From the NCBI GenBank assembly GCA_964016885.1, contig OZ024754.1, positions 806,001 through 870,000 on the forward strand: a stretch of DNA of 64,000 nucleotides, read 5' to 3'. Shown here piece after piece: positions 41,164 to 64,000 of the stretch. The position numbers and the translations under genes were made by a program. Source of the stretch: Eledone cirrhosa. Taxonomy: Eukaryota. The number at the start of each line of letters is the position of its first letter. Within the stretch, counting starts at the first letter, position 1. The notes beneath the pieces were generated by a model, which saw only the letters and a list, made by a program, of their open reading frames with translations, did not search any database and was not told the DNA's origin.

Positions 41164-41217
41164 TTACAACTGGCTGTTAGCTAACACAGCAATAGCTTCT
41201 ATTTCAACACGAGCAAG
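41164..41217 (-). CDS. RIDA: RidA exon 6, terminal (LARVEIEAIAVLANSQL*)
   Basis: CAG acceptor, VEIEAIA motif, TAA stop. Confidence 0.93.
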   Translation of the reverse strand, partial: LARVEIEAIAVLANSQL

Positions 41218-41426
41218 CTGGAAAAATAAGGAAAAAGACAGAAAAAAATGTCAGTTTCTATTTTTCAGAGAAAAAAAACATTACATTGAGATTCAACTAT
41301 AAGTGTTATGAAAGGTAAATTAGATATAGCAGCAACTGAGTTCAACGAGCAGTTTTAAAAAAACGTTATATATATATAAAATGTAAACTGCTTGTTGACA
41401 CTCAGTTGTGTATATATATTTATATA

Positions 41427-41985
41427 GGTGATCAGATTAGCATGGGAGGGGGGAGGGATTCTGAGGCCATAGTATCTAGAATAAGGACGGGTTGGAAGAA
41501 GTTTAGGGAGCTGCTTCCTCTGCTGACGAAGAAGGGTTTCTCTCTGCGTACGAAAGGCCGGTTATATGATGCCTGTGTGAGGAGCACAATGCTGCATGGT
41601 AGTGAGACATGGGCAGCAACTGCAGAGGATAAGTGATGGCTAGAGTGAAATGAGGCAAGCATGCTCCATTGGATGTACAATGTCAATGTGTGTGAACGAC
41701 CGAGCATGGATGTGTTGAGAGAGAAACTATGTTTAAGAGGGATAAGTTGTAGTGTGCGGGAGAGAAGACTGCGATGGTATGGACATGTGAAGAAGTGCCA
41801 AGAAATGCCAGTTGCAGGAAGACCACGAAAAACATGGGCGAAGGTGGTGAGAGCTGACCTCAGATCGCTGAAGTTCATGGTGGAGATGACAAAGGACTGT
41901 GACAAGTGGAGAGATGCTGTGCTGAATAGGACCCATCCCACCCTTGCAAGCAGGAAAAAGCAGACGTAAAATGTTGATGATGATG
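41427..41985 (+). mobile_element. RTE-clade LINE 3' fragment
   Basis: RIRTGWKKFRELLPLL..LYDACVRSTMLHGSETW..RLRWYGHV..GRPRKTW; (GAT)n tail. Confidence 0.9.
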
Positions 41986-42469
41986 TGTATTTATGTATAT
42001 GTGTTAATATATACGTATTTATTTGTTTATTCATTCTTTTGTGTGTGTATACATATTTTTTGTGCGTCTATGTATGTGTGTATATATGTATATGTTTGTA
42101 TATGTGTATGCATGTAGTTGTGCGTATGCATGTATACGTATATTGTCCTTATATATCTATATATATATATATGTGTATATGAGCGGGTATATGTATATAT
42201 TTATATGTATGTGTACATATGTATATGGTCAGAAATATATACTCTTACAATAATACAGACCGACAAAATATGCATACTCCACTTTTCCCTTCACAGCTCT
42301 GTATACACACCCTTATATTAACATACTTTTGCTCGTAGCTTCGTACTTACAAGCACACACACACAAACATACGCATGCACAAGTATAGCTCTTTATACAA
42401 AACGTTTTTTTTCCTTCCATATACTGTACCGGTTTTTTTTTCCCTTCACAATAATTATTTATTTACAAT

Positions 42470-43381
42470 AGTTTATAACGTTGCCTATTAATCCGTATGG
42501 TGAGCAAATGGGGTCCCAGGTGTTGGCCTCCCCACAGCCCCGGCGGACAGGGTGGAGAAGACGTTTCCCCGGAGGATGGTAAGGGAGATGCGCTGGAAGT
42601 GCCATTCCAACTCACGAGGCTCACACCTGTGGCTGGCCAGCTCAGCGCCTATGGAGGTGAATAGAGAGTCAGCCTTAGGGCCAAGGACACCAGAAGTCTC
42701 CACTGCCAAGGGCACGACCGCGAACCTGTCGAAGAGTGACCGTTACTTGGAGAGTTTGGCCTCCTCAGCCCGACGTGCAGCAGTACCTAGGTTAGTCGCA
42801 GACTGCACCAGGTTGTGGCTGGAGAAAGTGTTGCTGCAAGTGGCATTCCAGATGAGGGGTTTGCCACTTCAGAAGATGGTCATACCGTCTGGCCTTTTAC
42901 CGCCATCCCCTCGGTCCAGCCCCCCTGACTCGAGCTGGGAGGGGAAGCCTGCTGCATCCAAGCCATGCTTTATAACCTCGTTGAGGGCAGCATGGCATGG
43001 AAGGCGGCGGGCACTGTGGCGACAGGAAAGTGGGTGGAGTCCGAAAGGTGCATCCACAGCGACATTTATGTGGCTGGCAGATCCAGAGTCCAAGCCTCAA
43101 GGAAATGATGATGTGCAGGCTATCATTATCCAGCTGTGTGCCAGTGGAGAAGGAGGGCAAGGCATGGAGTCAGGCACCACTGTGGGGTTTGGAGGCCGTG
43201 CGAAAACAGGCAAGGCGGTGCTGGTCGAGCTGACGCATGAGCTTGTCTGTGGCCAGGCTGCACTGGATGGCACCCCATTTGCTTTGGGGGGGGACTTGAC
43301 GTCAGCAGGGGGAGAAAGAGGAGGGACGTCTACCAAGCTAAGTACCAGCCTGTCCCACGTCTCACAGACGACCTCATGTTC
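42470..43381 (-). mobile_element. CRE-clade non-LTR retrotransposon 3' fragment (zinc knuckle + restriction-like endonuclease)
   Basis: LRLGL..CRCG..HPLSC..HAALN..KRPDG..PLAVETSGVLG..QRISLTILRGN, with frameshifts. Confidence 0.85.
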
Positions 43382-43685
43382 CCTGAAAGTTCTGTGATTA
43401 GTAGTTCTTGGAGTAGTAATAACAGGTAAAAGGATGATTAAAACAGATAAGTCATACAATAGGGTTTTATTCGAAGCATACCCTATTGTATGACTTATCT
43501 GTTTTAATCATCCTTTTACCTGTTATTACTACTCCAAGAGCTACTCATCACGGAACTTTCAGGAATCTACTCTCCGAAAAACCTAAATAAGTAAACATCT
43601 TGTTGAGTCAACTAACACTGTATGCTGAAATAATCCTCGATACAGATTACTCGTAACCTGAGCTTAGGTAACCTCGTTTACTTTG

Positions 43686-43690
<5 letters not shown>
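43382..43690. repeat. PLE-related segment with 84-bp inverted repeat (43382-43465 / 43480-43563)
   Basis: 81/84 complementary; downstream part shares TACTCCAAGA and GTAAAC.TCTTGTTGAGTCAA with 22810-22950; abuts (TA)n. Confidence 0.7.
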
Positions 43691-43725
<35 letters not shown>

Positions 43726-43729
43726 CCCA

Positions 43730-44040
43730 AAGTCTGCCTATGTCTTAACTATGGTCACTTTTACTGTCTCTGCTGTGACTTTTGCACCTGCTTGTACTGC
43801 AAGTGCAAGAAGGAGGACTTATTTCCAAGCCAAGCTTTGTAGGCCTCCTTTTTTGAATAGTAGAGTTTCCATCCTCCATCCAAATCAGAGCCACGGAACT
43901 TTGTTGAAGAAACCTCAACTATATCTAGTCGGTAGCATCTAGCCTCTTCCACTAGTTCCTGCTCCATACCTGTAAGGATTGTTTGAGATGTTCCAGGTTC
44001 CAATTGTTATGGTTTGCTCCTTTCATGTCTTGGAATATGC
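43730..44040 (-). mobile_element. LINE APE-endonuclease fragment (RTE-like)
   Basis: ELVEEARCYRLDIVEVSSTKFRGS..GGWKLYYS. Confidence 0.65.
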
Positions 44041-44192
44041 AGTCTTTGAGTGTCCATCCTATGCTTCCCAGGACAGGTCATGGACCTGTCACCAGTTTTC
44101 ATATAACAAATAAGTAAAAGAGAGAATCATTTAGGCAATAATAATGTAATCTCCTCCAAACATTAATTCTGACTAAAAAATCGAAAATTTAC

Positions 44193-44251
44193 CTTTGGTA
44201 AATTACCAACTTGATAAGCTGCTCTGGCAGGAAAATCAGTTCCAGCAAAAT
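44193..44251 (-). CDS. RIDA: RidA exon 5 (YFAGTDFPARAAYQVGNLPK)
   Basis: TAG/GTAAAT boundaries; catalytic Arg in PARA intact. Confidence 0.95.
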
Positions 44252-45104
44252 CTAAAAAAGACATTACATTTCAGAAAATCAGTTTCAGTTAACAATGTTA
44301 TATCATTTATTGATCTCTTCTCCCTCTTTGTTCTCCTGGTTGTTGTTGTTGTTATAGCTTAACCTCATATAAACAACTTTCTTGAGTGTGTTAAAGATAG
44401 GAATCTGGTCCTATCATGAAAAGACCACCCCTTCTCTAGGTAGGATGTTAACCTCCCCTATCCTACCCCTGCTGGTACTCTATTATTTTCAGCTGAGTGG
44501 ACAGGAACAATATGAAATAAAAGTATTCAAGAACATAATGTGCCACATTAGGCCATGTGACTTCATTTGTTTGGCTGGTAGGGAGGTTGTTTTCCCAACC
44601 CTTTCATCAACTGAATATTTCTGTAGGGTACAGCAGGATTTGAACTCAGAACACAGTGAGCTGGTATAAAAACCACAAGCTATTTTATTTTAATCTCTAA
44701 AGATTTTGTCAAATTTACTGTCTTTAGCTGCTTTAGACTAAAACATTAAATTTCAAGATTTATGATAAACTATTCCATAGACCATAAGTCTATTAAGTTG
44801 TATAGTAAGTTCTCACTGTTTTTCAAATTTTTATTGACTAAATCAAGGGTGGTGGATTTAGCAGTATCGGTGGAGCGTCGCACAACATGCTTCAAGGCAT
44901 AGAGTTATAACCCTTCATGATCTCAGTTAAAATCCTGCCGAAGTTAAGCTTTGCCTTTCATCCTTATGGGGTCGGTAAAATAAAGTACCAGTAATACACT
45001 GGGGTCGATTTAATCAACTTTATATAAAGCCTTTACCATGAATATATAATAGTATATATAGAGTAATGTAAATATTAAAGGGTTAAAGCAGTAAAAATAT
45101 TTAC

Positions 45105-45173
45105 ATTTTGAATAGATTTCATTAACTGCTTGGAAGTCATTGATGTCAGCCAACAACACTGTGGTTTTAACAA
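45105..45173 (-). CDS. RIDA: RidA exon 4 (VVKTTVLLADINDFQAVNEIYSK)
   Basis: CAG/GTAAAT boundaries, 69 nt. Confidence 0.95.
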
Positions 45174-45762
45174 CTGAAATGATAAAGAGAAATATATTAT
45201 AATTTTTTGATACCAAACCACCTGAAACTGCCATGCATTTAGAATATAAAACTGCTCGTTTTAAATTGTTTATACATATAGTAAATCCTTCCATCATAAT
45301 TTTATTTAAGAAGTTTTTGTTCAGTAATGTTCTAAATAGCTTACTAATGAAAAAAGTTAATTCATCATTATCATTTAACTTTCCCTGCTAGCAAGAGTTG
45401 TATGGGTCTTCACAGACTGAGTCTGTACTGAAGCAGGAGTTGAATTTACCAGGAGTTAGATTCTTGCCAGTATAGCCCTCTGAATCAAAAAGCACACAAG
45501 CCACTCCACCACAACAAGGTATTTAATCATATATCTACAAGCATATATACACACTATTGGATCATTGTTGACTCTCAGGAGCTCGACCCTTTGATGGCTA
45601 TTGTTTCTCATCTCACAGGGTGTGAAAAAATCCCCCTCCTCATCAAGTAGGCTTGGTGGGGTTTCCACTTGCCAGTTTAATCCCAGACAACCTAACCATG
45701 CAACTTGTTATACTGGGTTACATATCAAATAAAGTTGATTAGAAAAAAAAGCTTAAACTTAC

Positions 45763-45817
45763 CATTGTTTAATGAAGCACCAGCTTCTTTGAGGATTGCA
45801 CACATATTCTTGAGAGC
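45763..45817 (-). CDS. RIDA: RidA exon 3 (ALKNMCAILKEAGASLNN)
   Basis: CAG/GTAAGT boundaries, 55 nt. Confidence 0.95.
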
Positions 45818-45949
45818 CTGGAAAGAACCATTAAGGTAAATATTAATCACATTTATTTTAATGAAAACTACAGAAAAAAATAATACAAGCTTTGATAAAC
45901 ATCAGATTTATTTAAAAAAATTAACTTGTAGCTTTATAAATATGTTGTA

Positions 45950-46490
45950 ATGGTGACATGACAAAAAGCACCCAGTTCTCACTGTTAAGTGGTCTTGTTG
46001 GTAACATGACAATAAATGCCCAGTCCACACTGTAAAGCGATGGTCCTGTTGGTGACATGACCTAAAACATCCAGTCTACACAGTAGAGTGGTTGTTTTGA
46101 TGCTGCGACAAAAAGCATCCTGTCCACCTTGTTAGGTGGTCATGTTTGTATCATGACAAAAAGCACCCAGTTCATACTGTAAGGTGGTTGTGTTGGTGCC
46201 ACAAAAAAAAAGTTTCCTGTCCACACTGTAAAGTGATTGTGTTGGTGCCACAAAAAAAAAGTTCCCAGTCCATACTGTAAAGTGATTGTGTTGGTGCCAC
46301 AAAAAAAAAGTTTCCAGTCCATACTGTAAAGTGATTGTGTTGGTGCCACAACAAAAAACAGAAACCAGGCCAGAAACAGTTCTGTATGAGCAAGACATGG
46401 TCATCTGATCTGACTTGTTTCACAAACGGACAACTTGTCTAACCCATGCTAGCATGGAAAATGGACATTAAACGATGATGATGATGATAA
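45950..46490 (+). repeat. RTE-tail SINE with minisatellite expansion
   Basis: Tandem ~48-51-bp units, tail GGACATTAAACGATGATGATG. Confidence 0.8.
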
Positions 46491-46522
46491 CATCTCACTA
46501 ATTTATAAAAATGACAACATAC

Positions 46523-46628
46523 CTGATCAGCTTGTTCAGCAGCATTGTTGGAAGGAAACTCCATACTGCTAGGAATAAGACCAAGCTGTCCTGAGATGTA
46601 CATAGTCTTATCAACTACAACAGCTTGG
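46523..46628 (-). CDS. RIDA: RidA exon 2 (SQAVVVDKTMYISGQLGL..EQADQ)
   Basis: TAG/GTATGT boundaries, 106 nt, YISGQ motif. Confidence 0.95.
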
Positions 46629-46786
46629 CTAAAACAATAACATGTACATGTAATCACTAAACAGTAGAAAAAATAAGAATACAAATATCTAAATAGACAG
46701 ACACTAGGTTTAGAAACAATATATAGCTATACAGCATGATCAAAATATCCCCTTGAACAAGTTTCTTCTCTTCTACCATATCTTAA

Positions 46787-46993
46787 CCCTTTAGCATGTA
46801 CATTACTCTATATTACTATTGTATTTTTGTGGTGAAGGCTTTACCTCACATAATATTGAATCTACAAGATTTTGATATTATTTATTTTGAGAACAATACC
46901 TTAACATCAGTATGAGTGGCTGGTTACAGCTGGTTTGAATAGAAAGAGGTGAGAGAATTCTGGCTGGATACAGCCGGTTTAAATGCTAAAGGG
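46787..46993 (-). mobile_element. piggyBac-type MITE
   Basis: TTAA on both sides, TIRs intact. Confidence 0.85.
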
Positions 46994-48686: not shown

Positions 48687-48894
48687 CCCTTTAGCATTTA
48701 AACCAGCTGTATTCGGCCAGAATTCTCGCACCTCTTTCTGTTCAAACCGAGTGTAACTGGCCACTCATTCTGTTGTTAAGGTATTGTTCTCAAAATAAAT
48801 AATATCAAAATCTCATAGATTCGATATTATGTGAGATAAAGCCTTTACTGTGAAAATACAATAGTAAATATAGAGTATTGTAAATGCTAAAGGG
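48687..48894 (+). mobile_element. piggyBac-type MITE
   Basis: TTAA on both sides, 14-bp TIR CCCTTTAGCATTTA. Confidence 0.88.
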
Positions 48895-49535
48895 TTAAAG
48901 GCACACAAGGGGCCAAGTGATGATATTAAACAAGGTGGAAAATTAAGCAGTGGGGAGGAGGAGAGAGGAAAAAATCTGAAAAATTTAATAAGCCAGGTGG
49001 AAAAGGGAGGGGACGATTATTTGAGAACCGGGAGTAGAGGGTCAAAGAAATTGAAAAAAGTGATATGAGGTGAGAAGGAATTCTAGAATTATATAAGATC
49101 ATGGATAGTGTTATGCATTGTGTAAACCAGGTGATTACTTAGGATACTAAAACCTGGAGTGCCACACCAATTCTGAACAATTTATAAAATTACTTAAGCC
49201 AAAAAAAATTAGGAACAGGCACAAAAACTTAGTAAAGAGAATAGGAGAGGTCACTCCCCACTCCCAGAAGAGAAGATAGGATAGGTATGAGGTAGGGTAG
49301 ATGAGAGGGGTGTTATGGACAGTTATGGGGTAGGGTAGATGAGAGGGTTGTGCTGTTTCATGAGATTTGTCATGAAGCATTTCAAATGTTGCCAGATAAC
49401 AGATTTACTCATTGATATTACTATATATTTATAGACACGTGACCACTGGCATTACATAGTGTCTCTGTCTATCTCACCCTGCTATTTGTATTGAATGTCT
49501 TTATATCAAATTATGTTGGAAGGTTTTAATTTAAA

Positions 49536-49681
49536 CTAGCAGAATGGCTCGGCATTGCTCAGGATTTGCTCTAGGGTTCTTATATATTTGATATATATTT
49601 ATCCTTATCGAGCCTCGTGAAATAAATATGTTTGTTTATATTTTGTTATTGTGTATGCAAAAATATCTGTACACGAATATA

Positions 49682-49721
<40 letters not shown>

Positions 49722-50109: not shown

Positions 50110-51726
50110 TAAAGATTCTTTAAAATAGGTGGTTTTGTTTGATAGAAAGAAGTGTTTTTGAGTGGGTTGCTATCAAAAGGGTTAAACCGGGGGATAGATT
50201 GCAGCATTCCTAGTTAATTTTCCTAGCAGTTGAGACCACTTGTGTTCTGGGTCCCTTATATTGGGATGGAGTTGGCCACCTGCATGGGTGAATCCTGTGA
50301 GTTGGAATGGCTTTTCCAGTGCATTTCTTGCTCTCCTCAGGAGTAATACAGTCTCTATTCTGTTTGCTGAGACCATGAGATAGCATATACCTCGAGTTCT
50401 GCACATCAAAGTGGCAGAGAAGATGAGCGGCCTGGCGACAACATTTTATCAACTGGTTTGTGTTGTTACTGTAAGCCATTATTGTGATATGTAGTCATAA
50501 ACTGGACAATCTTCTAACGCCCTCCTCCCCATACATATCAACGTAACACTACATGGGTTACAGGAGACAGACTAAAATAACATGACATTTTCTATGGAAT
50601 AACCTAGCTTGGTTTAAAAAGAATTTTTAATTTTAAAAAAAATGTCCCGTTGTGAAATAAAACAGAAGGTTGCAGGCACCACTTTTTAATACCATAATTT
50701 ATTGGAAAACTACATTTTTCAGGCTGTGGCATTCGAAACTTTTGATGGAGCTGAGCTGTCGAAACTTAGGTTTTTGACATGGTTGTCAGCGACCGAGCAC
50801 CTCCTACTGAAGGGTGTTTGACTATTCTAGAGCATTAGCAACGCTATCACTCGCGGTAATCCCTTGGGTGACTTAGCTTGGTCAAATGTTTTTAGAAAGG
50901 AAACACCAGCATTTTTTCTTGTGTAAAAGATTTTTTTATATATTTAACTAGCTGAATTACTCGGCGTTGCCCAGGTTACTGCTGTTCTTATTCAGATTAG
51001 TAAACAATAAATATGAAGATATCTTTTTTTTTCTCATAATTATTTCAAAATATCTATATTTTATTAAAAAAAAATATCAAAATTGTAATAATAGAATTTA
51101 GAAATTAAAATCTTGAAACACCTTAGGGTAAACAATATTCATTGTGTAATTTTTTGTTGGTGTCCAAATGAATAAATTGTTGCTACACACTCACACATAC
51201 ATATACTAAGACCGACACACACAGACATACATTCATGCAGACACACGCATAGCTTTTCACCTCATTTTTTTACAGTCGCTACATATGTGTAGATGTGTGT
51301 ATTTAATAACATACCTAATGAACACGCACACACTCATACATATTCATATACAAAATCTGATGTCGTGTTGTTTTCTATTGTTTTAATCCAAATGAAATAA
51401 AAATTCACACATACACTCACAGACTCACACATAGCCATACATTCAAGCACACCTATCTGTCATCACATATGTATCTGTATGTGTAGATGTGTGTGTGTGT
51501 GTGTGTGTGTGTGTTTAATTGTCTATATGTATGTGTAGATGTGTGTGTGTGTGTTTAATTTTCTGAGGTCTAATGTATGTAACAAACTCGCAAACAAACA
51601 CACACACACACACACACAATCACAGACACACTCATACAATGTGATTGGAAAAATTAAACTCAAAAGTGTAGTAACACGTATAAATAAAAAATCAAATATG
51701 ATTGTGAGTTGGGCACATGGAGCGGA

Positions 51727-51791
51727 TATTTTATTATATATATTTCAAGGGCAACCAAGGCAGTCTTGGTGCGCTTTCATCAGACAAAATA
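51727..51791 (-). ncRNA. Minimal type I hammerhead ribozyme (PLE type), minus-strand copy
   Basis: Exact reverse complement of 51902-51966. Confidence 0.8.
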
Positions 51792-51901
51792 CAAAATTTG
51801 TTTTATAAATAGTGACATAGCCATGGAAAACAACCTTGACGGTTGAAAATTCGTCAAGGTTGTTTTCCACGGCTATGTTACTATTTATAAAACAAATTTT
51901 G

Positions 51902-51966: not shown

Positions 51967-52004
51967 ATTATGGTTTTATAAATATAGTTTCCATTTATTA
52001 ATAT

Positions 52005-52040
<36 letters not shown>

Positions 52041-52207
52041 ATATTGTAACTTCTAATTGAGTTTGTTTGAGTGAATAATGACATATAATCAATATTAAAA
52101 CATCTTTTTAACTTTTAAACAGGCTCTTTATAGAAGTAGAAATAGAGAAAAAGTTTCTTTCAGCTAATATTTCACGTGTCTTTTATCCTTTTTTTATAAA
52201 TACCATT

Positions 52208-52402
52208 AATTGTTTCTATTTTAGGCTCAAGGCCAGCAATTACCCAGTACATTACTCGTACTTTATTTTATCGAAGAATGTTTCATCCGTAAAGATGAAA
52301 GGCAAAGTTAACCTCGGCCGGATTTGAACTCAGATCGTAAAGGGACGTAACTATGCTGGAAAGCATGTCCGACTCTCTACCGATACTGTCAACTCACCAC
52401 CC
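52208..52402 (-). mobile_element. tRNA-derived SINE
   Basis: Family consensus. Confidence 0.8.
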
Positions 52403-53031
52403 TTTAAATGCATTTACTTTATAACGAGATAGAAAATATGATTGCGTGAAGTTCGACTGTTTTTCAAGGAAAATAAGAGTAATCGAAACATTGTTTCAAA
52501 AGTTTTTTCTCTTCTCTGTTAAATGACTTTATTTTCCCCCGTGTGTTCTCACAGTAACGTTTACTATCGGCATGTTATGGATCAGCGAAGAATCTTTATG
52601 CGGTCGTTCGAATTACTAGTAATAGCACCCTACCATCTATAAAAATAAGACACATTAAATATAATAGTCCTCGGTACATTGTTTCTTGAAACACAGGCGG
52701 AATAGTCATGGCTGGAACGTTTAATTAAGGGCTTGCTGCTTATCAGCATATAATACACACATTCTTATATACACATAAGTAGGAATGTATTTGTTTGTAA
52801 ATAACATTAGAAATTGCTCACAATTCTTTTAAATACAATTAACTATTGCTAGGAACATCACAAATATAAAACACCAAAATCAGAGCGAGAGAAAGAAAAA
52901 AAAGGGGGAAGGACAAAAACGACACATGTTGAAAAAAAAATTGTCTAACCGTTTAACATTTTATATCCTGTGGGAATGCAAAAAACCAAAACAAAACAAA
53001 CAAAAGGCGAACTATATAAATTATATTATAC

Positions 53032-53096
53032 CTGTAAGCTCCGATGGCTTTTGGTGCATTGGCCGAGTTGATGATGCGTTTACAAATACTAGCCAT
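53032..53096 (-). CDS. RIDA: RidA (YjgF/YER057c/UK114 family 2-iminobutanoate/2-iminopropanoate deaminase) exon 1 (MASICKRIINSANAPKAIGAYS)
   Basis: AAC ATG G context, AP.AIG.YS motif, GT donor; spliced CDS is 408 nt = 135 aa. Confidence 0.95.
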
Positions 53097-53140
53097 GTTT
53101 TGTTGGATTCTCTAAGGGGTTTGGTACACAACACGGCTAC

Positions 53141-53181
53141 AACTGTAAGGTCGGCTATCTGACTGACTGCTGTTATATATA
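53141..53181 (-). promoter_or_regulatory. RidA core promoter: TATATAA (53173-53179) and Inr-like ACAGTT
   Basis: TATA about 30-35 nt upstream of the Inr-like motif and about 80 nt upstream of the ATG. Confidence 0.55.
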
Positions 53182-53208
53182 GTGTTGTTATCTAGTGGAA
53201 ATGTTACT

Positions 53209-53280
53209 GCACCACCCTCAGTCTCCTGTCACAGTCACCACCAGCACCACCCTCAGTCTCCTGTCACAGTCAGCACCACC
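53209..53280. repeat. 35-bp tandem duplication in the RidA proximal promoter
   Basis: GCACCACCCTCAGTCTCCTGTCACAGTCA at 53209 and 53244. Confidence 0.85.
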
Positions 53281-54178
53281 GCTATCGTAAACAGCTGGGG
53301 TTAACCAACAAGAAAGCATTTTACGTGGTCAATCGACCTGCTAAATATACCAGCAAAATTCTCGCAGATTACGACTTGCTTTATTAGAAAATTACCCGTT
53401 GGCTAATATGATCCTGGGTTCTCTGCATACAGGAAAAAGACAGGATGGTCACGACTGGAATATCTTTCATGATAGGTTTTCTTGATCAGAAGGGCTCACC
53501 TGGTGCTAAACAACGATATGAATAAGAACAACCAATAACAGACATCTAACCAAATTTATATCCTGCTACCAGCATGGTGTTGTATTTGTAATGAAGCCAC
53601 TTAGCTCTGAAATAGTTCAGTCTACCTAGCTGTAAGTAGGTACCACCAAGTAGAAACCAACTCGTTGCTATGAGTATAAGCAATAGGAAGCATTGTAAAA
53701 TGAACATTTTGTTGGCTTACAGTTTTGAATTCAACTACTGTATGTATAACTTTGAGAGATAAAGGATTCTATCAACTGCTCATCATAAATATACAGGTTG
53801 GTATCAAAATGGTTAAAATAAAATGCTTATTTGTATTGACTTTGAATAGTAATACAATGAAGATGCATATCTGACCACCAAACATCTGATTATGTAACAC
53901 TAGTGGTTTGTAGTTTAGTGTTTATGGTGCTGGGATCATGATTGTGAAGTTGGGAGTTTGATATCTGGTCAAGATTGTGTCCATGATATAAAGGACACTT
54001 TATTTCACATTGCTTCAATCCACTCAATGAGAAAAAATGAGATATACCTGTAAATTCAAAGGGCCAACCTTGTCACACACTGTATCATATTGAATCTCCC
54101 TGAGAACTACGTTAAAGGTGCATGTGTCGGTGGAATACTGAACCACGTGGTTCAGTATTCCACATTAATTTATATAAT

Positions 54179-54360
54179 TGTTTGTACTTTTGGTACAAGG
54201 CCAGCAATTACCCAGTGCATTACTGGTACTTTATTTTATCGACCCCGTAAGGATGAAAGGCAAAGTTAACCTCGGCGGGATTTGAACGCAGAATGGCAAG
54301 GGCCGTAACTCTATGCGTCAAAGCATGGCGTCCGATCCTCCACCGATACTGCCAATCCAC
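54179..54360 (-). mobile_element. tRNA-derived SINE with 18-bp TSD
   Basis: CACATTAATTTATATAAT at 54161-54178 and 54361-54378. Confidence 0.9.
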
Positions 54361-54846
54361 CACATTAATTTATATAATGTCTTATATATATATCAACAGT
54401 ATTTATTTACAGCTTGGTGAGCTGGGTTAACAAGTGATAAATGATTTTTCCCTAGTAAGGTAGCAGTAATGATGGGATAAGAGCTGTAAATGACCCTTCA
54501 GCTGATAACCCTATCAACTTATTCAACTACTTGTGGTTCCTACACAAAGAAAAGAAGTGTAGATTATTGCTACATGGGAAGATTGGCAGATGGTTTTCCA
54601 CAATTAAATCTAATCCCTCCTACGTTTAGCACAGGCTCTTATCAAATATACTCCCAACAGGCACCCTAGTGTGGAAGTAACTTCTTGATATGGACACAGA
54701 CATGGCTGAGTGGTTAAGAAGTTTGTTTGACAATCATAAGAGCTATGGTTTAATTCCACTGTGTAGCATCTTGGGAAAGTTTCTTTTACCATAGCTGCAT
54801 GTTGATCCAACCATATGAATAAAATTGGGTAACACACTGTATAGAA

Positions 54847-54990
54847 CAGTCACGGGCAAACTGCAGGCCATTTGGCTTTCTGAATGGCACGCCTAATTTC
54901 AAAATTGCCTTGAAGTTTTTAGTAGTGTGGCCCACCTTATGAGCCACATCCTATATGGCCCACTGCTAAAAAAAGATTGTCCATGCCCAA
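54847..54990. mobile_element. hAT-type MITE
   Basis: Flanked by TATAGAA repeats; homolog of 12173-12337. Confidence 0.6.
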
Positions 54991-56080
54991 TATAGAAGCT
55001 GATTGCATGGATAGTACTTTTAATTCGAAGGTCCAGCTTTGTGCACTGTGTCACACTGATTCTGCTTGGACTGGTACCTTATTTCATTGACCTTGAAGGG
55101 ATGAAAGCAAAGATGACCATGGTAGGGCTTGAACTTAGCCAGAACTGATACCACAAAATATTCTATCCACCACTCTAATGACCCCGACAACCATTTATCA
55201 ACTGCTTATTATGGTGATGGCATCTCAAAATACTTTAATTGAAATAATTATTATTTATAGAGCTGTTGACCATTTTGCAGAATTGTTAGAGCATTGGACA
55301 ACATGCTTTGTGGCATATAGTTACGGCCCTTTATGTTCTGAGTCCAGCCGAGATTAGCTAACGGCTTTCAATAAAATAAAGTACCAGTAACATCCTGGGG
55401 TCAATTTAATTGACTCTCCCCTTTCCTTCAAATTGCTGGCCTTGTGCCTAAATCAGAAACCATTATTAGTTTGTTAAGGGCGGTAGATTGGCAGAATCGT
55501 TAGAGCATGGACATAAAGTTACAGCCCTTTATGTTCTGAGTTCAAATCCTACTGACATTGGCTTTGCCTTTCATCCTTATGGGGTTGATAAAATAAAGTA
55601 CCAGTAATGCACTGGAGTCAATTTAATTGACTTTCTCCTGTTGACTTGTGCCTAAATCAGAAGTCATTACTAGTTTGTTATAAATTGTAAAATGCTTCGG
55701 ATGGATTACCATATTTCTAATAAAAGATATTGTCTATAATTTTCAATAGAATTATATTCATATAAGACTCTGGGATTGCAGTTGTGGGGAAAATTGACAT
55801 TTTGAAAAATGATTCCAAAATTTGTTATCAGTTAGAATCAGGTTTAAAAAAATATATATATATCAAACAACAAAATAACAAAAAGAAGATAACAATAAAA
55901 AAGAAACTAATAGATTGTCATTGAAAAGATATATTGTGACCTTTCTTGAGAGAGATTGGTGTGTGTGGGGGTGGGGTGGAGAAATAAAACAAAAACAAAG
56001 CTATTAGCTACATGAACCACTTACTGTGACCCAATATACATTGTTAACTGTGAGTATGCTATAAATTCACCAAGATTATT

Positions 56081-56240
56081 GGTGGATTGGCAGTATCGGT
56101 AGAGGGTTGGACGCCATGCTTTGACGCATGGAGTTACGCCGAGGTTAACTTTGCCTTTCATCCTTACGGGGTCGATAAAATAAAGTACCAGTAATACACT
56201 GGGTAATTTGCTGGCCTTGTGCCAAAAGTAGAAACAATTA
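56081..56240 (+). mobile_element. tRNA-derived SINE with internal deletion removing the B box
   Basis: Family consensus; GAGTTAC is joined directly to GCCGAGG. Confidence 0.8.
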
Positions 56241-56309
56241 TTATTATGTTCTAGATAAATCTAAATCTTAGAATAATTGGGCAGGATTAAAACAAGGATT
56301 ATGTTGTGC

Positions 56310-56700
56310 TGACTTTAACCCTTTTGGTAGTAACCATCCAAAAACTGTTTTTAGTCTATGTTAGAAATGATTAGAGAAGTATATAGGGCTGTCTTTAACC
56401 CTTTTGGTAGAAACCATCCCAAAACTGTCCCAAATCTATGTTAGAAATGGTTATGAAGAGAGAAGTATATAGGGTTGGTAGCAACCACCCCTAAACTGTC
56501 TCTAATCTATGTTAGAAATGGTTAGAGAAGTATATAGGGCTGTCTTTAACCCTATTGATAGTAACCATCCTAAAATTGTCTCTAAAGTATATTGGGGCTG
56601 TCTTTAACCCTTTTGGTAGCAACCATCCCCAAACTGTCTTTAAACTATGTTAGAAATGGTTAGAGAAGTATATATCGTAGGACTGTCTTTAACCCTTTTC
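56310..56700. repeat. ~80-bp minisatellite
   Basis: Units CTGTCTTTAACCCTTTTGGTAG..CTATGTTAGAAATGGTTAGAGAAGTATATAGGG, about 5-6 copies, some partial. Confidence 0.85.
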
Positions 56701-56900
56701 GGACCGGTCGCCGTCGAGACCTCAGGTGTCCTTTGTGCCCGCACTGCTGATTTCCTTCGAAAATCGGAAAAACAGAACCCGTTAGGTGGGGTGGCTATTG
56801 CAGAAGGTGTCACTGGCCATTCTCTGCGGCAAACCTTTACCATTTTGTCTGCAGGGGGCAGCTGTAACATCGCTCAGACTGGGGTGTAGAGTATGTCGCT
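56701..56900 (+). mobile_element. CRE-like retrotransposon 3' fragment
   Basis: PVAVETSGVL..LSAG, homologous to the 42488-42715 ORF. Confidence 0.65.
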
Positions 56901-56991
56901 CCCTTTCTTTGGTTGCTTCTTTCCTTTTTACTATTTTCCCTTTCTTTTTTGTTTCCTTATTGCCATGTATATTGTACCGTTATTTCATTAT

Positions 56992-57166
56992 TGGATTGGC
57001 AGTATCGGTAGAGGGTCGGATGCCATGCTTTGAATCATAGAGTTACCTCCCTGTATGATATGAGTTCAAATCCCGCCGCGGTTAACTTTCATCCTTCCGG
57101 GGTCGATAGAATAAAGTACCAGTAATACATTGGGTAATTGCTGGCCTTGTGCCAAAAGTAGAAACA
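56992..57166 (+). mobile_element. tRNA-derived SINE with 13-bp TSD
   Basis: GTTATTTCATTAT at 56979-56991 and 57167-57179. Confidence 0.88.
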
Positions 57167-57185
57167 GTTATTTCATTATCACATT

Positions 57186-58200
57186 GGCACTACAACGGAA
57201 TTGGCTATCAGAAGTGTAAGTAGAAGAATGTGACGTTAATCTGACGTCATTCGTCAACCTTCGTTTATTTCCGTATCACCACCACCACCATGTGTAAATA
57301 AATAAACTTTGAAATCACCACGTTGATGCAAAACTTGGTTTTTCACTTTGGGATAATACACCTATTTGCAACTTGAAAAATATGAATTCTACATTATACC
57401 CCAGCGTAAATGGAATTAATCATCGCGATATTTCCATCGCTACCGCTACTACAGCAGATACCATTAATTGGTTGAAAAAACATGGACTTACTCCTGTATG
57501 TTATTAAAAGGTTCCCGAGTAGTACAGTAAATTATAGCCTTTATGAACGGAACTATGCAATGAAAGTATTTTTAATAAGTGTATCTCATCGTAAACGTAT
57601 CTCTTAGAAATTCATAAATGGCTGTGTAAACCCTTACACTTTAAAACAAAATTACAAACCAATTATGTGGTCATTGAAGTTGCTAGAAATAGCAGGCAAA
57701 TCTTATACCCTCTACCACATGAAAGAACTCGTTAATATTTATTGAAATATTCGAAGGGTTGCTGCTTCGGACGTGATAAAAAGGAAATTATATAGAGAAT
57801 TTTAAATATTTCGAAAGCACAAGCAATCGTCAAGGACTTTATATACTAATTCCTTTCTTTCTGTGTTCGTGGCAGCTGAGTATCAACCATCCATAAATAA
57901 TTTTTACCCGCTAAGAATCTCAATGGGGGAAATTTTCTTCAATTTCTGCCAGTATTACAAATTGTAGTTACCCGCGTTAAATTGTTTTTCTCTAAAAGAA
58001 AGTCGGTAGTGTCGGCCCCATGAACTTCATTTGTTTTTTTAATTTGATAACTATGACTATGCATCAACGTGGTGATTTCAAAGTTTATTTATTTACACAT
58101 GGTGGTGGTGGGGATACGGAAATAAACGAAGGTTTGACGATTGAGAAGGTTGACGAATTCTTCTACTTTCACTTCTGACAGCCAATTCCGTTGTAGTGCC
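57186..58200. mobile_element. Non-autonomous DNA transposon with ~145-bp TIRs and 8-bp TSD (Mutator- or Merlin-like)
   Basis: Ends GGCACTACAACGGAATTGGC / GCCAATTCCGTTGTAGTGCC; TIRs 57186-57330 and 58060-58200; ATCACATT at 57178-57185 and 58201-58208. Confidence 0.85.
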
Positions 58201-58372
58201 ATCACATTTTCTGTATTCTTTGTAGCAGACGATACGATACAGTATGTCTGAAAATAAAATAAAAACGAGATGATCGCGGTTAGAACGTTCCCGCTTATAG
58301 TTAGTTCTACTGCATCGGGGCAATTTTTGTAGCAAAAAGAAATAACTGACACCGGTTACTGAGAAACCGGTG

Positions 58373-58434
58373 TTAGTTGTTCCTTTTTGCTCCAATTAAC
58401 AAGCAGCTTTCATTTGAAAATTACATCTTGCCAC
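58373..58434 (+). other. POP1: Putative non-coding first exon of POP1
   Basis: Inr-like TTAGTT at 58373 and GTGAGT donor at 58435; the ATG exon has an acceptor at 60480, so an upstream exon is needed. Confidence 0.5.
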
Positions 58435-58810
58435 GTGAGTTCAAACAAGTTTTGTAGAATTTTAATTATCTTACAAATTCCTCTCAGCAAATAATGAACG
58501 ATGAGCACTGTTAGTCTGAAGACAATATCAATTTTGGTTTTTAATTTTCGAAGTTTATCTCATATTTGTTTATATCTCTGACATTTGTTATAGTTTATTA
58601 AAAAAAGAACTACCTTATTTAATGTTTTGAAATAAAAGTTGTTTAGGGGTGACAATCAAGTCTTTTTATATACATTGTTCCTGGCGTCATGTTTTGTTTA
58701 AGACGGAATGTGATTTAAGGTAGATTTACGGACGATTTCTTGCAGGTTGACAGCCACCACGCACAGGCCCCTTTATTAGCTCGAGAATAAATATTTGTCG
58801 TTTTTGCTTA

Positions 58811-59866
58811 TCTTTATATATATAAAATCCTTTTCTCTCTGGCTGTCCATATGCATTCTCAAACTGCTGGACCAATACAAATCAAAATTTACAAGGTATT
58901 AGACCTCGGGTGTGTCAACATGTAATTTTTATTTTCATTTGGTCTCTTTATATATAAAATTCTTTGTCTGTCTGTTCCTATGCATTCTCAAACGGCTGGA
59001 CCAAAACAAATGAAATTATTAGTATTAGACCCTGGGAGTGTCAGCATGTAATTTTTTATTTTCATTTGGATTAAAACAATATGACATTTTAACTAAAATA
59101 ACCTTTCTATAGCGAACTATAGTAAACCACGACGACGAATCACATTTTGTATGAGTGTGCGAGTTCGTTACGTACGTTATGCCTCAGAATTAAACACACA
59201 CACACATCTACACAAGTAATAGGTGTGCGTGAATGTATGTCTGTGTGTGTCTGTACTAAGACATGTATGTGAGAGTATATGTGTGTGTATGTGTGATAAC
59301 TTTTATTTTAACATTAGGCTTGAGAGAATTAAACGCACACACACCTACACATACATATGTGATGACACACAGGTGTGCGTGAATGTATGTCAGTGTTTGT
59401 CTTAGTATATGTATGTGAGTGTATGTATGATCATTTTTATTTTCATTTGGATTAAAACACGTCACATTTTGTATATGAATATGTATGTGTCTGAGTGTGT
59501 TCGCGTTCATTAGGTACGTTATTAAATACATACATATACACGTATGTAGTGACTGACCGAAAATGAGGTGAAAAACTATACATGTCTGAGTATATGTAAA
59601 TGAGAGTGTGTAGCAACAATTTATTCATTTGGACACCAACAAAAAATTACACAATGAATATTGTTTACCCTAAGGTGCTTCAAGATTGACAGATTTTCAT
59701 TTTTAAATTCTGTTATTACAATTTTGATATTTTTTAATAAAATATAGATATTTTGAAATAATTATGAGGAAAAAAAAAGATATCTTCATATATATCTTCA
59801 TATTTATTGTTTACTAATCTAAATAAGAACAACAGTAACCCAGACAAGGCCGGGTAATTTAGCTAG
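58811..59866 (+). mobile_element. Non-autonomous Helitron with duplicated 5' end
   Basis: A|TCTTTATATATATAAAA start (repeated at ~58945); hairpin CCCAGACAAGGCCGGG and CTAG|T end. Confidence 0.8.
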
Positions 59867-60349
59867 TTTACTATATGTTACTGAGGAACTAAGCACCAGT
59901 GTGTGTTAGGTAATATGTAAACAACAAAAATACAAGCTTAAATGGAACCTTACATTACGTTACTATCTTAGTAATGAAATTAATAATTTTAATAAATCCT
60001 TCAAAATTCTTCATTAATTAATTAAAATAGAGTGTATTTCATTAGAAATATTGTCATGAAAGGGTTAAATAAATTGATTGGCTGCAGTTTTCCAATTAAT
60101 GGCTGATTCTCTTAGGTACATTGCTGTACATATTTCTTTTTGCAACATTCATCATCATTATTGTCGTTTTTACATCAACCTTTCCATGATGGCATGGGAT
60201 TTTTTAAGACAATGTTTTATAGTTGGATGTCTTTGACACCAACTCTTTTAGTTGCACCTTACAATATGCAGTGATACAGTGTATCTATTCTAAAAACTGT
60301 GACACATGGGATACATGTGGAAGGCATTTATATAATATAGTGCTAGTTA

Positions 60350-60396
60350 TCCCATGTGGTCTAGTGGTTAGGATTCCTGGCTTTCATCCAGGCGGC
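60350..60396 (+). pseudogene. 3'-truncated tRNA-Glu(TTC) pseudogene
   Basis: TCCCATGTGGTCTAGTGGTTAGGATTCCTGGCTTTCATCCAGGCGGC = acceptor 5' strand, D arm, anticodon arm (CCTGG/CCAGG, TTC) and variable loop; T arm and 3' acceptor strand are missing. Confidence 0.85.
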
Positions 60397-60497
60397 ATTT
60401 TAACACGGATTTTTTTATTTTTAGTTCTACTCATTCTAGCATGGAACTATAACATTTTCTTCATTTAAAGTTTATTTCAGACTTATAGCTGATCAAA

Positions 60498-60576
60498 ATG
60501 TGTGACAGGATTAATAAGAAAAGAAAGTTTTCTGAAATGGAATCAAGAAATCAATCAAATGATACATTGCCTTCAT
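60498..60576 (+). CDS. POP1: POP1 first coding exon (MCDRINKKRKFSEMESRNQSNDTLPS)
   Basis: Acceptor at 60479-60480, CAAA ATG, KKRK NLS-like motif, phase-1 GTAAGT donor compatible with the next exon. Confidence 0.8.
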
Positions 60577-61130
60577 GTAAGTATAAATAATATTGATCTC
60601 TAACATAGTTTCAAGACTTCAAATTTAGTAGAGGGATGTAATCAATTTTATTGATCCCAATACTAGACTGATACTTTATTTTATTGACCTCAGAAGGATG
60701 AAAGGCAAAGTTACTTCTTGCAGGATTTGAACTCAGAATGTAAATAATTACTGTGTCTGACACTACAGTTTCTACCACATGCCCATAGTACCGGAGTCGT
60801 GATTTCTCAATTCAGAGAAGTAGCAACTCTACCTGGAGTAACTCTCTGATCTCCAGGTTACGCAACTATCGAGTAACATTACTCCAAAGACCTTCCGGAA
60901 GAACCCCATTTCGTCCGCTTGTATTCGTGATCGTATTCTTTCGGTCAAAATTGCAATCTGAAAAAAATGCTTCTACTTTTGGCCTTTTATCTGTAGATAG
61001 TTTGTCTCAATTTCATTCAAATGTTACACTGTTATGTCTCATTTTAAACACTTTTCACACATTGGTGAACTACATTATTTTAAAACAAGACTTTATATAA
61101 AATGTTTTTCTCCAGCATTATTTATACCAG

Positions 61131-61313
61131 GTGGATTGGCAGTATTGGTAGAGGGTCGGACGCCATGCTTTGACGCATAGAGTTACAGCCTTTTATGATC
61201 TGAGTTCAAATCCCGCCGAGGTTAACTTTGCCTTTCATCCTTACGGGGTCGATAAAATAAAGTACCAGTAATGCACTGGGTAATTGGTGGCCTTGTGCCA
61301 AAAAGTAGAAACA
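61131..61313 (+). mobile_element. tRNA-derived SINE with TSD
   Basis: ATTATTTATACCAGG on both sides. Confidence 0.88.
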
Positions 61314-61663
61314 ATTATTTATACCAGGTCATTAAGATTGGCAGATATGATGTATGTCCACATCATTATCATTTCATGTTCATTTTCTACGCTGGAATGG
61401 GTTGTTACAGTCATAGTCTTATTTAGTTCTTATTTAGAGTTACTGCCCTCCTAAACAGATCAGGGGACCACACCATAGTCGTATGTTCCAATTTTGGCAT
61501 GCTTTCTGCAGCAGAGTTCTCTTCCTAACACCAATTTGCAGAGTGTACTGGGGGCATTTTAACAATGCCAACCCTTTCAGGAGTTTTTTTTACAATATTT
61601 CGAAATATCTGTTTTAAAACCTGGGATGCACATGTTTTATATTTACCTTTCATATTTTTTCAG

Positions 61664-61848
61664 CTATGAATATTGTCCGATATGCTGAGAGCCGGACACA
61701 AGAAATTGCAAGTTTAAGTCTTCATGTCCAAACTAGAACAGTTAACAAAATGGTGTTGGAGACTTTACCAAAACATATGAATAGACGAGCAATGAGTCAT
61801 GACATCAGACGCTGGCCACGTCGTCTCCGTCAGTTGGTGAAAAAGCAG
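61664..61848 (+). CDS. POP1: POP1 exon (..LPKHMNRRAMSHDIRRWPRRLR..)
   Basis: POP1 R-box-like LP.HM.RRAMSH...PRRL; CAG/GT boundaries. Confidence 0.93.
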
Positions 61849-62271
61849 GTTTGTATTTGCTATATATTTGCAGTAGATATTTCTGCTATTCATCATAGTT
61901 CTCCAGAGGAGTTTGAAACTGGCTGTCCATGGGAACTTCTTTATGTAGATGATAGGGCGGTGGAGTGTCGGACAACATGCTTTGTAGAATAGTTATGGCC
62001 CTTTATGTTCTGACTGCAAATCCCGCCAAGGCTAGCTTTGTCTTTCGTCACTACCATGCAGCATCATACTTTTCATGTAGGGATGAGAAAATCTCTTTGT
62101 CTCTCTGTCAACAGAGGTAGTAGCTTCCTAAACGTTTACCAGCCTGTTTTTCTAGCTAGTATACTTTCAGTGCCCCCCTCCTCCACTGCTAATTATGTTA
62201 CCTAAGTAACAGAAGCTATCAACTACTTTATTTTTCAATTTTTTTTTTTATACTGTTTATTTTCAACTTAG

Positions 62272-62514
62272 TATGAAAATCAAGGAAGCAAACGACAGCG
62301 TCGACCACCATCTAGAAAGCATCGCAGACGTCCAAACAATTTGTTGGCTGAATACAATCGACGTAAAAGAAAACAAGTTTGGCTTGAAACTCACATTTGG
62401 CATGCCAAACGCTTCCGTATGACCAAAAAATGGGGATATCACCTTGCTAAGGAACCAACCTGCAAAGCAAATCGAAGGACTTACAATTCTATTATGAAAT
62501 ATTGCTTATTACAG
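62272..62514 (+). CDS. POP1: POP1 exon (..[23 protein letters not shown])
   Basis: POP1 W-box signature; TAG/GT boundaries, 243 nt. Confidence 0.97.
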
Positions 62515-63057
62515 GTTTGTACATCACTTTGTGAAAGTCTATATTTTCTTGCTAGCCTCTGTTATAATTAATCATCCTCACCACTATATTTTACATCCAA
62601 ACATTAGGAAGATGTCATCATCATCATCATCATCATTATGTCAGCATCGTCATCATCATCATCATCATTTCATTGTAGATAACTTGCTGAACATCTAATA
62701 TGATTTTCTGTTATAATGATCTTTCAATTTAATTTTCCTTTCTGTAAGTTAACACTTTCATTACCATATTTTCAATTAAAAAAACACTGTGTTTCAATTA
62801 ATTTTGAAAATAATAAAAAATTTACAAGAATTTAGTAAAATGTCCAAATTACATTTAATAAAAAAAAGTTAGTTAAATTCACATTTTCTTTTATGTATTT
62901 ATATTTAAGAGTCGCAAATATTTTTTTAAAAGCTAAAAATGATTGAAAATGTTTGACTTCCTTGTCCTAGTTCTTAAAAACTATTGCCATCACTGGCTAT
63001 TAACAGCATTTATTCAAAGAAGTACCGGTCTTTATTTTAACCTCTCACCTATTTTAG

Positions 63058-63145
63058 GATGTGTCTTATCTGTGTTGTATTGAAATAAGTGGTTTACACA
63101 GTGAAATAACACTTGGCTTTTCTCATCTTTCAAACCCTTCCACAG
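63058..63145 (+). CDS. POP1: POP1 exon (DVSYLCCIEISG..NPSTG)
   Basis: D.SY..C.E..G motif; TAG/GTAAGT boundaries, 88 nt. Confidence 0.93.
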
Positions 63146-63485
63146 GTAAGTTGGATACATATATTTATTAGTTTAGAGTGTTTTAAACTTTACATCATTG
63201 TCATTATAATGATAATGATGATCATCATCACCACCATAATCGTTACCACCATGACTACAATTACCACTACCTCTTCCACCACCACTACCACCACCATGAT
63301 CATCACCAATACTTGTCTACTTTCCCATGCTTGCATGGGTTTCCTGAAGCAATATTGTACAACTAGATTCCCTTCCATTTAATTAATTGTAATATAATGA
63401 ATTTCATGAGAGATACTGTAATGAAAGGATTAGTCTATTGTAATTTATTTGTTTTACCATTCATAAGAATTAATTTTTTTTGTAG

Positions 63486-64000
63486 GTCCTGGTATTGGTG
63501 CTAAATGTTATTTGAATGGAAGCCGAGAAGGTAGTATTGTTTTATATAAATATGATCAATTCCCACATGATGCCATAGGTTTAGTAACATTTCTATGGAA
63601 GCCTGTCTCTACTGACTGCAGTAAATTAATTTCAAATACTGGAGAGTCTGAGAATATTCGATATCTCTGGCTGTGGTGCCATCCATCATGTTATAACCTA
63701 CTTTGGCAACAACTCATAAAGCTATTCCAAAATGTTATTTCTACACCAGAAGATAGCAAGGTCTTAACGAATAACACTGATGAAACATCAAATACAGCAA
63801 ATATTAAAACATCAAGTGGAACCACTGAAGCCACTCAGACATTTCATACTTCAAATACCAAAGAGACAACTTCTGCTAATCTTTCAAATGGTTGTTCATC
63901 TGGATCAACTAATAACAAGAGCGGTGTCTTCTTAAAATCTTTGAAAGACCAATTAGTACGGTTTCGTTTAACTGGTCCATTATCACTGAAAGTTCTAGGC
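63486..64000 (+). CDS. POP1: POP1 exon, runs off the window (..GSREG..FLWKP..LWLWCHPS..RFRLTGPLS..)
   Basis: TAG acceptor; frame open to the window end with conserved POP1 motifs. Confidence 0.93.

Follow-up and report, generated by a model that had tools for sequence, protein, structure and literature searches.

RidA is an imine/enamine deaminase that clears metabolic damage of the 2-aminoacrylate type, and POP1 is the scaffold protein of RNase P/MRP. The vertebrate pair formed by their genes is already known: human RIDA (HRSP12, UK114, p14.5) and POP1 are listed with a bidirectional promoter of 650 nt (PMC2871058, Table S5, citing Schmiedeknecht 1997), in agreement with the original prediction that they are adjacent and head-to-head, and gnathostome synteny of the pair is documented (PMC7311433). 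Conserved ancestral microsyntenic pairs (CAMPs) number 595, with 448-492 retained in amphioxus and Lottia, and 68.6% of those in Lottia are oriented 5'-5' (Irimia et al. 2012, PMC3514665). Since molluscs are known to carry such pairs by the hundred, most of them head-to-head, the original prediction overrated the surprise of this one.

The window analyzed here (the whole 64,000-nucleotide stretch of Eledone cirrhosa DNA) holds the orthologs of the vertebrate pair in the same divergent arrangement, with no intervening gene detected. Human RIDA and POP1 lie less than 1 kb apart, whereas the octopus ATGs are 7.4 kb apart, with putative start sites at a distance of about 5 kb. Our preferred reading, to which we assign a probability of roughly 0.6, is that these are unrelated housekeeping genes, head-to-head since the ancestor of bilaterians, which would have been kept together by cis-regulatory inertia and not by protein partnership, and whose start sites were split by transposons in the octopus lineage.

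Gene models, orthology and the interval between the genes

An intact open frame of 135 aa on the minus strand encodes RidA in six coding exons with five GT-AG introns, the exon lengths being presumably equal to the human ones. POP1, on the plus strand, has five exons and 370 codons without a stop in the window, and continues past the window end. Both genes sit where they had been predicted, diverging from ATG 53096 (RidA) and ATG 60498 (POP1), which are 7,402 bp apart.

41164..41217, minus strand: RidA exon 6, 54 nt including the stop codon
44193..44251, minus strand: RidA exon 5, 59 nt, with catalytic Arg108 (vertebrate Arg107)
45105..45173, minus strand: RidA exon 4, 69 nt
45763..45817, minus strand: RidA exon 3, 55 nt
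46523..46628, minus strand: RidA exon 2, 106 nt
53032..53096, minus strand: RidA coding exon 1, 65 nt, starting with the ATG
60481..60576, plus strand: POP1 first coding exon, with a splice acceptor 17 nt upstream of the ATG
61664..61848, plus strand: POP1 coding exon 2
62272..62514, plus strand: POP1 coding exon 3, encoding the POP1_N domain
63058..63145, plus strand: POP1 coding exon 4
63486..64000, plus strand: POP1 coding exon 5, truncated by the window end

The RidA protein is identical to that of O. sinensis at 127/135 positions (94%) and to that of Argonauta at 117/135, and carries all 17 of the conserved residues listed in PMC7311433, Arg108 among them. With the 94%-identical O. sinensis protein as the query, the Rid/L-PSP domain (PF01042) scored 138.9 bits (cut-off 27.3) and TIGR00004 166.9 bits (cut-off 106.25); the window's single-exon RidA ORF on its own reached 24.1 bits, under the cut-off. 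The top PDB matches of the same query are vertebrate RidAs (1oni, 160 bits), with plant (120 bits) and prokaryotic chains behind them. In a 42-row tree of the window protein and 41 named animal RidAs, built without an outgroup, it clusters with Octopus and Argonauta at a support of 100/100, and the molluscs are not recovered as a single group. Salmon ridA also has six exons (PMC7311433). Together, the PDB matches, tree grouping and exon number bear out the predicted orthology with vertebrate RIDA, and identify the protein by sequence as neither a paralog nor a bacterial Rid; it is predicted to be a trimeric imine deaminase. The other neighbor of RidA in the window is an annexin gene, and the vertebrate neighbors named in PMC7311433 differ. 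For POP1, the POP1_N domain scored 63 bits (cut-off 22.2), and identity to O. bimaculoides POP1 is 79% across 373 columns; the POPLD and POP1_C domains are both present in the O. bimaculoides protein, and the window sequence ends before them.

In line with the original prediction, scans of the interval detected no gene between the two. None of the 19 stop-to-stop ORFs of at least 60 aa lying wholly within the gap reached a curated Pfam cut-off (two gave sub-threshold matches), and Atlas searches with two gap ORFs returned leads that were all under 0.9. No tRNA was found in the gap, and 0/29 listed Rfam matches across 40000-64000 attained the gathering score; hidden RNA genes were rejected as candidates, the sub-gathering matches falling mostly over simple repeats and palindromes. 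A crude exon scan, which recovered just 5/8 known RidA and POP1 exons (the first coding ones being left out), yielded no candidate in the gap, where a gene made of tiny exons might still conceivably lie. RidA and POP1 belong to different Pfam families with no intervening gene detected, as the corresponding part of the CAMP definition has it (Irimia 2012).

Repeats, CpG profile and promoter anatomy

The features of the gap and its margins are as follows.

52000..53450, no strand assigned: CpG-retaining block over the RidA 5' end, putative RidA promoter (CpG o/e 0.85)
53451..56075, no strand assigned: CpG-depleted stretch with SINE-like copies (9 CpG observed against 52 expected, unmasked bases)
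56300..56699, no strand assigned: minisatellite, five copies of ~78 nt (family D1)
57186..58200, no strand assigned: Merlin-like non-autonomous DNA transposon with terminal inverted repeats (TIRs) and a target-site duplication
58209..58810, plus strand: CpG-retaining block, putative POP1 promoter and non-coding first exon (o/e 1.24; candidate donor 58435)

Self-BLAST matches within the window cover 43% of 53097-60497, confirming that transposable-element insertions separate the pair; the gap contains SINE-like copies, the minisatellite and the 1-kb transposon, and has accommodated ~3 kb of repeats. The transposon has ~145-bp TIRs starting with GG and is flanked by an identical 8-bp duplication (57178-57185 and 58201-58208). 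In all three respects it resembles the Merlin superfamily, with its TIRs of 24-462 bp, terminal GG and 8- or 9-bp target-site duplication (PMC8101967). Merlin elements have an IS1595-type DDE transposase, however, and the ORFs of this element gave no Pfam match to a transposase domain, while an Atlas search was uninformative; we therefore label it Merlin-like rather than a member, and at best it would be a non-autonomous element of that kind.

In octopus, DNA methylation is concentrated on gene bodies (PMC9476566), and this pattern is the basis for predicting promoters from CpG retention. Besides the young transposon, just three promoter-like CpG blocks occur in the 64 kb, one per presumed gene start, against a presumed intergenic background of o/e 0.32-0.38. 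The splice acceptor just 5' of the POP1 ATG implies a non-coding exon further upstream. The distribution of CpG points to two promoters, separated by ~5 kb, instead of one compact promoter, and so leans against the spacing of under 1 kb between transcription starts by which bidirectional promoter pairs are defined; the two blocks (52.0-53.45 and 58.2-58.8 kb) agree with the start-site separation of ~5.2 kb originally proposed, a distance that is itself estimated. The splice-donor scan placed neither 5' end, the scores of true donors ranging from -0.5 to 8.9. CpG depletion as proof that the gap is an intron was dropped, since the background is depleted too.

It is rather unlikely, in our estimation, that the octopus pair instead keeps one compact bidirectional promoter masked by a long 5'-UTR intron, with either a POP1 start near 53.2-53.4 kb or an upstream RidA exon near 58.3 kb. 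The opening of the POP1 ATG exon at a splice acceptor is compatible with this arrangement, as is the depletion of 53451-56075, the strongest among nine compared segments (o/e 0.17, TpG/CpA o/e 1.37), given that methylation is chiefly on gene bodies; moreover, the 58209-58810 block contains a 69-bp palindrome (58327-58395) and may be derived from a transposable element rather than a promoter. However, other stretches of the window that are presumed intergenic are likewise CpG-depleted, the RidA block ends at 53.45 kb without extending toward POP1, the gap has a T/A skew (-0.047) unlike that of the POP1 body (+0.065), and neither alternative first exon has a strong donor. A compact promoter would fit an ancestral age of the pair and would alter its promoter anatomy alone.

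Age of the linkage and its retention

The chance of this named pair being adjacent and divergent in a shuffled genome is p ~2e-5, and over the 5,855 human divergent pairs 0.10-0.15 chance recurrences are expected, rising to ~3.7 with full macrosynteny. A rough posterior for an ancestral pair is 0.87-0.999, on the assumption that 25-250 ancestral pairs are retained, its inputs being assumptions. Scaffold lengths of RidA and POP1 agree in both species for which the two were retrieved (34,844,033 bp in Argonauta hians and 60,359,117 bp in the chiton Liolophura sinensis), a shared scaffold not being the same as adjacency; adjacency is seen in one protostome, in this window. A 64-genome survey without spiralians gives the pair in five vertebrates only (PMC2871058), with Ciona, Nematostella, Trichoplax, Daphnia, three insects and two nematodes among the genomes covered, and its supplements contain no match to Lottia, amphioxus or sea urchin. 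The survey produces false negatives, since Xenopus tropicalis was among its genomes but is missing from the row, and the gene order is conserved in X. laevis (PMC7311433). According to Schmidbaur 2022 (Data 1), POP1 belongs to a block found only in cephalopods (Euprymna and Callistoctopus), alongside SPFH and Sir2 genes; the block has no RidA-domain annotation, and its listing leaves 2/6 Euprymna genes without annotation and passes over one Callistoctopus gene number. The gene names gave no matches in the supplements of Robert 2022 and of a 2026 chromosome-topology paper, where genes may be given by identifier only, and the passages searched in Grau-Bove 2017 contain no pair table.

The low expectation for chance recurrence makes an ancestral linkage probable, and we consider it likely, from gene order, that the head-to-head linkage is ancestral to bilaterians. 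The bilaterian age originally proposed is retained as probable on these grounds, the direct evidence comprising two lineages plus the same-scaffold hints from Argonauta and the chiton. If the two genes instead shared one ancestral linkage group, inversions or the coleoid genome reorganization could have rejoined them independently. The ~3.7 recurrences expected per genome under full macrosynteny are in keeping with such re-association, as are the cephalopod-specific neighborhood of POP1, the annexin beside RidA and the absence of any invertebrate from the 2010 survey row; nevertheless, retained ancestral pairs are expected to exceed chance recurrences many-fold and the octopus orientation equals the vertebrate one, so that we regard this origin as improbable. 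A rival account builds on the functional constraint invoked in the original prediction: an old linkage would have been retained through co-function, with RidA bridging YTHDF readers to POP1 and RNase P/MRP for m6A RNA cleavage in all bilaterians, and with co-transcription equalizing the amounts of the two proteins. Reviews report that human HRSP12 links YTHDF2 to POP1 (PMC7156397, PMC12016569), and the adjacency of reported partners, a coincidence in itself, also speaks for this account. The human pair is also among the 31/167 bidirectional pairs with strong mRNA co-regulation (mRNA r 0.54), with a protein correlation that is still positive (r 0.34), yet it belongs to the 28/31 that lose co-regulation at the protein level and not to the three that sustain it (PMC5572396). 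Furthermore, the complete deaminase residue set could explain the conservation of octopus RidA without a second role, the gap tolerates its ~3 kb of repeats, and the adaptor role is described in reviews of human work, a literature search having found no invertebrate report. A complex prediction for octopus POP1 residues 20-832 with one RidA chain scored 0.00, and counts neither way as alignments were unused and controls not folded; none of 215 POP1 matches carried a RidA domain (4/219 were set aside as vertebrate-like), a search that is uninformative because a head-to-head pair would not fuse. With human protein co-regulation weak and the octopus gap open to repeats, the proposed functional constraint is not supported: retention by co-function appears quite unlikely, and the stronger statement, in which the YTHDF-RidA-RNase P/MRP cleavage pathway, described so far in human cells, goes back to the bilaterian ancestor and has held the genes head-to-head ever since, is a little more doubtful again.

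Retention by cis-regulatory inertia, our preferred reading, would proceed as follows. RidA and POP1 were probably head-to-head already in the bilaterian ancestor and survived as many 5'-5' pairs have done: the DNA between two 5' ends is short, so few breakpoints would fall in it, and as it includes the promoters on which two widely required genes depend, breakpoints there would tend to harm. Shared open chromatin would coordinate the mRNAs as a by-product. In the octopus, transposon insertions would then have widened the distance between the 5' ends to ~5 kb and probably left two separate promoters, with the linkage intact.

Comparison with known conserved pairs

With an ancestral linkage, the bidirectional pair known from vertebrates would reach across the protostome-deuterostome split and through the coleoid genome reorganization, as one more example in a class that already counts several hundred. 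At the octopus locus, nature has provided a test of whether a shared promoter is still required by a head-to-head pair. Were the pair unusually well kept across phyla, evolution would supply independent grounds on which to test the reported HRSP12-POP1 adaptor role; and if the cleavage pathway were of bilaterian age, gene order would have foretold that a metabolic enzyme moonlights, with the octopus locus showing linkage that outlasts a shared promoter split by transposons. The octopus pair differs from the vertebrate one in the annexin that adjoins RidA on its other side. CAMPs are defined by presence in at least four major metazoan lineages, whereas adjacency of RidA and POP1 is seen in two, the vertebrates and this octopod (PMC3514665 for the definition). 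Like co-regulated 5'-5' CAMPs such as HSPE1-HSPD1 (PMC3514665), the pair joins unrelated housekeeping genes in distant phyla, and it is a probable new addition to the known class of 5'-5' conserved ancestral microsyntenic pairs.

RidA and its orthology

The RidA gene occupies six coding exons on the minus strand, with GT-AG borders at all five introns and an open frame of 135 aa.

Coding exons of RidA
53096-53032, minus strand, exon 1
46628-46523, minus strand, exon 2
45817-45763, minus strand, exon 3
45173-45105, minus strand, exon 4
44251-44193, minus strand, exon 5
41217-41164, minus strand, exon 6

The encoded protein is identical to RidA of Octopus sinensis at 127 of 135 positions and to that of Argonauta hians at 117 of 135, which places the window within the octopods. 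It retains all 17 conserved RidA positions listed in PMC7311433, including the catalytic arginine. It joins Octopus and Argonauta (support 100/100) in a 42-row tree that sets it beside 41 named animal RidAs; the tree was built without an outgroup and is poorly resolved in its deeper branches. The O. sinensis protein passes the PF01042 and TIGR00004 thresholds, and its closest solved structures are vertebrate RidAs, followed by plant and prokaryotic chains. The exon number matches that of salmon ridA, and we take the exon lengths to equal the human ones. In view of the octopod grouping, structural matches, family profiles and exon number, the objection that this RidA is not the ortholog of vertebrate RIDA fails. 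Tandem RidA duplicates were noted in the gastropods Nucella and Batillaria (consecutive locus tags; hits P0119/P0170 and P0128/P0166, respectively), and a multi-exon annexin gene (7260-34115, plus strand) lies tail-to-tail with RidA in the window.

The interval between RidA and POP1

POP1, the RNase P/MRP scaffold protein, is encoded on the plus strand from an ATG at 60498, 7,402 bp from that of RidA; five exons (370 codons, no stops) precede the window end, beyond which the 3′ part lies, and the product is 79% identical to O. bimaculoides POP1. The predicted divergent arrangement, with nothing gene-like in between, was confirmed: no Pfam family reached its cut-off in any of the 19 ORFs (≥60 aa) that the gap wholly contains, a tRNA search found none there, none of 29 listed Rfam matches reached the gathering score, and an exon scan that recovered just five of eight known RidA/POP1 exons returned no candidate.

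Repeats make up 43% of the gap, in agreement with the proposed transposon insertions. They include a minisatellite, copies of a ~190-bp, presumably SINE-like repeat (16 copies ≥100 bp across the window) and the following element.

57186-58200, 1,015-bp element whose near-identical inverted arms (~145 bp) open with GG, with an exact, intact 8-bp target-site duplication

Such arms and duplication are described as Merlin features (PMC8101967); no transposase was found in the element, which is therefore called Merlin-like only. It is non-autonomous and probably a recent insertion, immediately 5′ of the inferred POP1 promoter. Separately, GC-rich degenerate coding remnants at 42490-43400 and 56640-56890 share a short peptide motif, have no Pfam match and presumably correspond to the terminal part of a non-LTR retroelement. 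A ~590-bp repeat (77% identical, inverted) links 50938-51484 in RidA intron 1 with 59341-59876 upstream of the POP1 ATG exon, and three unrelated short palindromes (43429-43516, 51796-51897 and 58327-58395), with sub-threshold matches to Rfam microRNA models, are probably MITE-like remnants.

Promoters and CpG content

The POP1 ATG follows a splice acceptor by 17 nt, so the gene should begin with a non-coding exon, for which a candidate donor lies at 58435. After repeat masking, most of the window has a CpG o/e of 0.32-0.38, with peaks at the annexin 5′ end (0.86), at 52.0-53.45 kb (0.85) and at 58.2-58.8 kb (1.24); octopus methylation is reported on gene bodies, with promoters spared (PMC9476566). 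The annexin CpG-retaining block spans 7.0-8.9 kb, with a likely first-exon donor at 7315. Judged from sequence, the latter two peaks fit separate RidA and POP1 promoters ~5 kb apart, consistent with the predicted 5.2-kb spacing of start sites without proving their positions. A compact shared promoter masked by a long UTR intron appears rather unlikely against these two blocks. In its favor, 53451-56075, nominally intergenic, shows the strongest CpG depletion among nine compared segments (o/e 0.17; 9 observed vs 52 expected) and may be, or may once have been, a UTR intron, and the 58.2-58.8 kb block adjoins the young transposon and contains a palindrome.

Age and persistence of the linkage

The vertebrate head-to-head pair is documented: Table S5 of PMC2871058 lists UK114 (RIDA)-POP1 as divergent in human, mouse, chicken, medaka and Tetraodon, citing a 1997 report of a bidirectional promoter in human, and gene order at ridA is described as conserved from elephant shark to human (PMC7311433). 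The PMC2871058 survey (2010), which has false negatives (Xenopus is also missing from the row), does not list the pair in its sampled Ciona, Nematostella, Trichoplax, Daphnia, insects or nematodes, and its supplements gave no matches for Lottia, amphioxus or sea urchin. Schmidbaur 2022 Data 1 (blocks of at least three genes) assigns POP1 to a block confined to cephalopods, alongside SPFH and Sir2 genes. RidA-domain annotation is absent from this block, but two of its Euprymna genes lack annotation and its Callistoctopus numbering skips one gene, so it speaks clearly neither for nor against the pair.

In the two invertebrate species from which both proteins were retrieved, RidA and POP1 lie on scaffolds of equal length (Argonauta, 34.8 Mb; the chiton Liolophura, 60.4 Mb), a coincidence expected by chance at ~3% for Argonauta if its genome is near 1.1 Gb (the figure for A. 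argo). This hints at linkage, not adjacency, and is the only direct invertebrate hint beyond the window. Chance recurrence of one named adjacent divergent pair is about 2e-5; over 5,855 human divergent pairs, 0.10-0.15 recurrences are expected, or up to ~3.7 if both genomes retained ancestral linkage groups. Assuming 25-250 retained ancestral pairs, common ancestry is favored at ≥0.87, which we discount to roughly 0.8. The bilaterian age in the original prediction is probable on chance estimates, against a vertebrate-only survey row.

The functional constraint also proposed is unsupported. Reviews describe human HRSP12 (RIDA) as an adaptor that links YTHDF2 to POP1 (PMC7156397, PMC12016569). 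Given that the locus accommodates ~3 kb of repeats between the two presumed starts, retention through cis-regulatory inertia is the simpler and somewhat favored explanation, and co-function an improbable one. A literature search, with most subscription papers beyond its coverage, turned up no account of the pair in animals other than vertebrates. The octopod case is probably an addition to a known class and possibly already tabulated, most likely in Irimia 2012, Table S2. That survey (PMC3514665) reports 595 conserved non-paralogous pairs, 448-492 of them kept in amphioxus and Lottia, with 5′-5′ orientation in 68.6% of oriented Lottia pairs. On balance, the locus is best read as a further example of housekeeping genes that have stayed head-to-head since early in bilaterian history, a class of which many members are already described.
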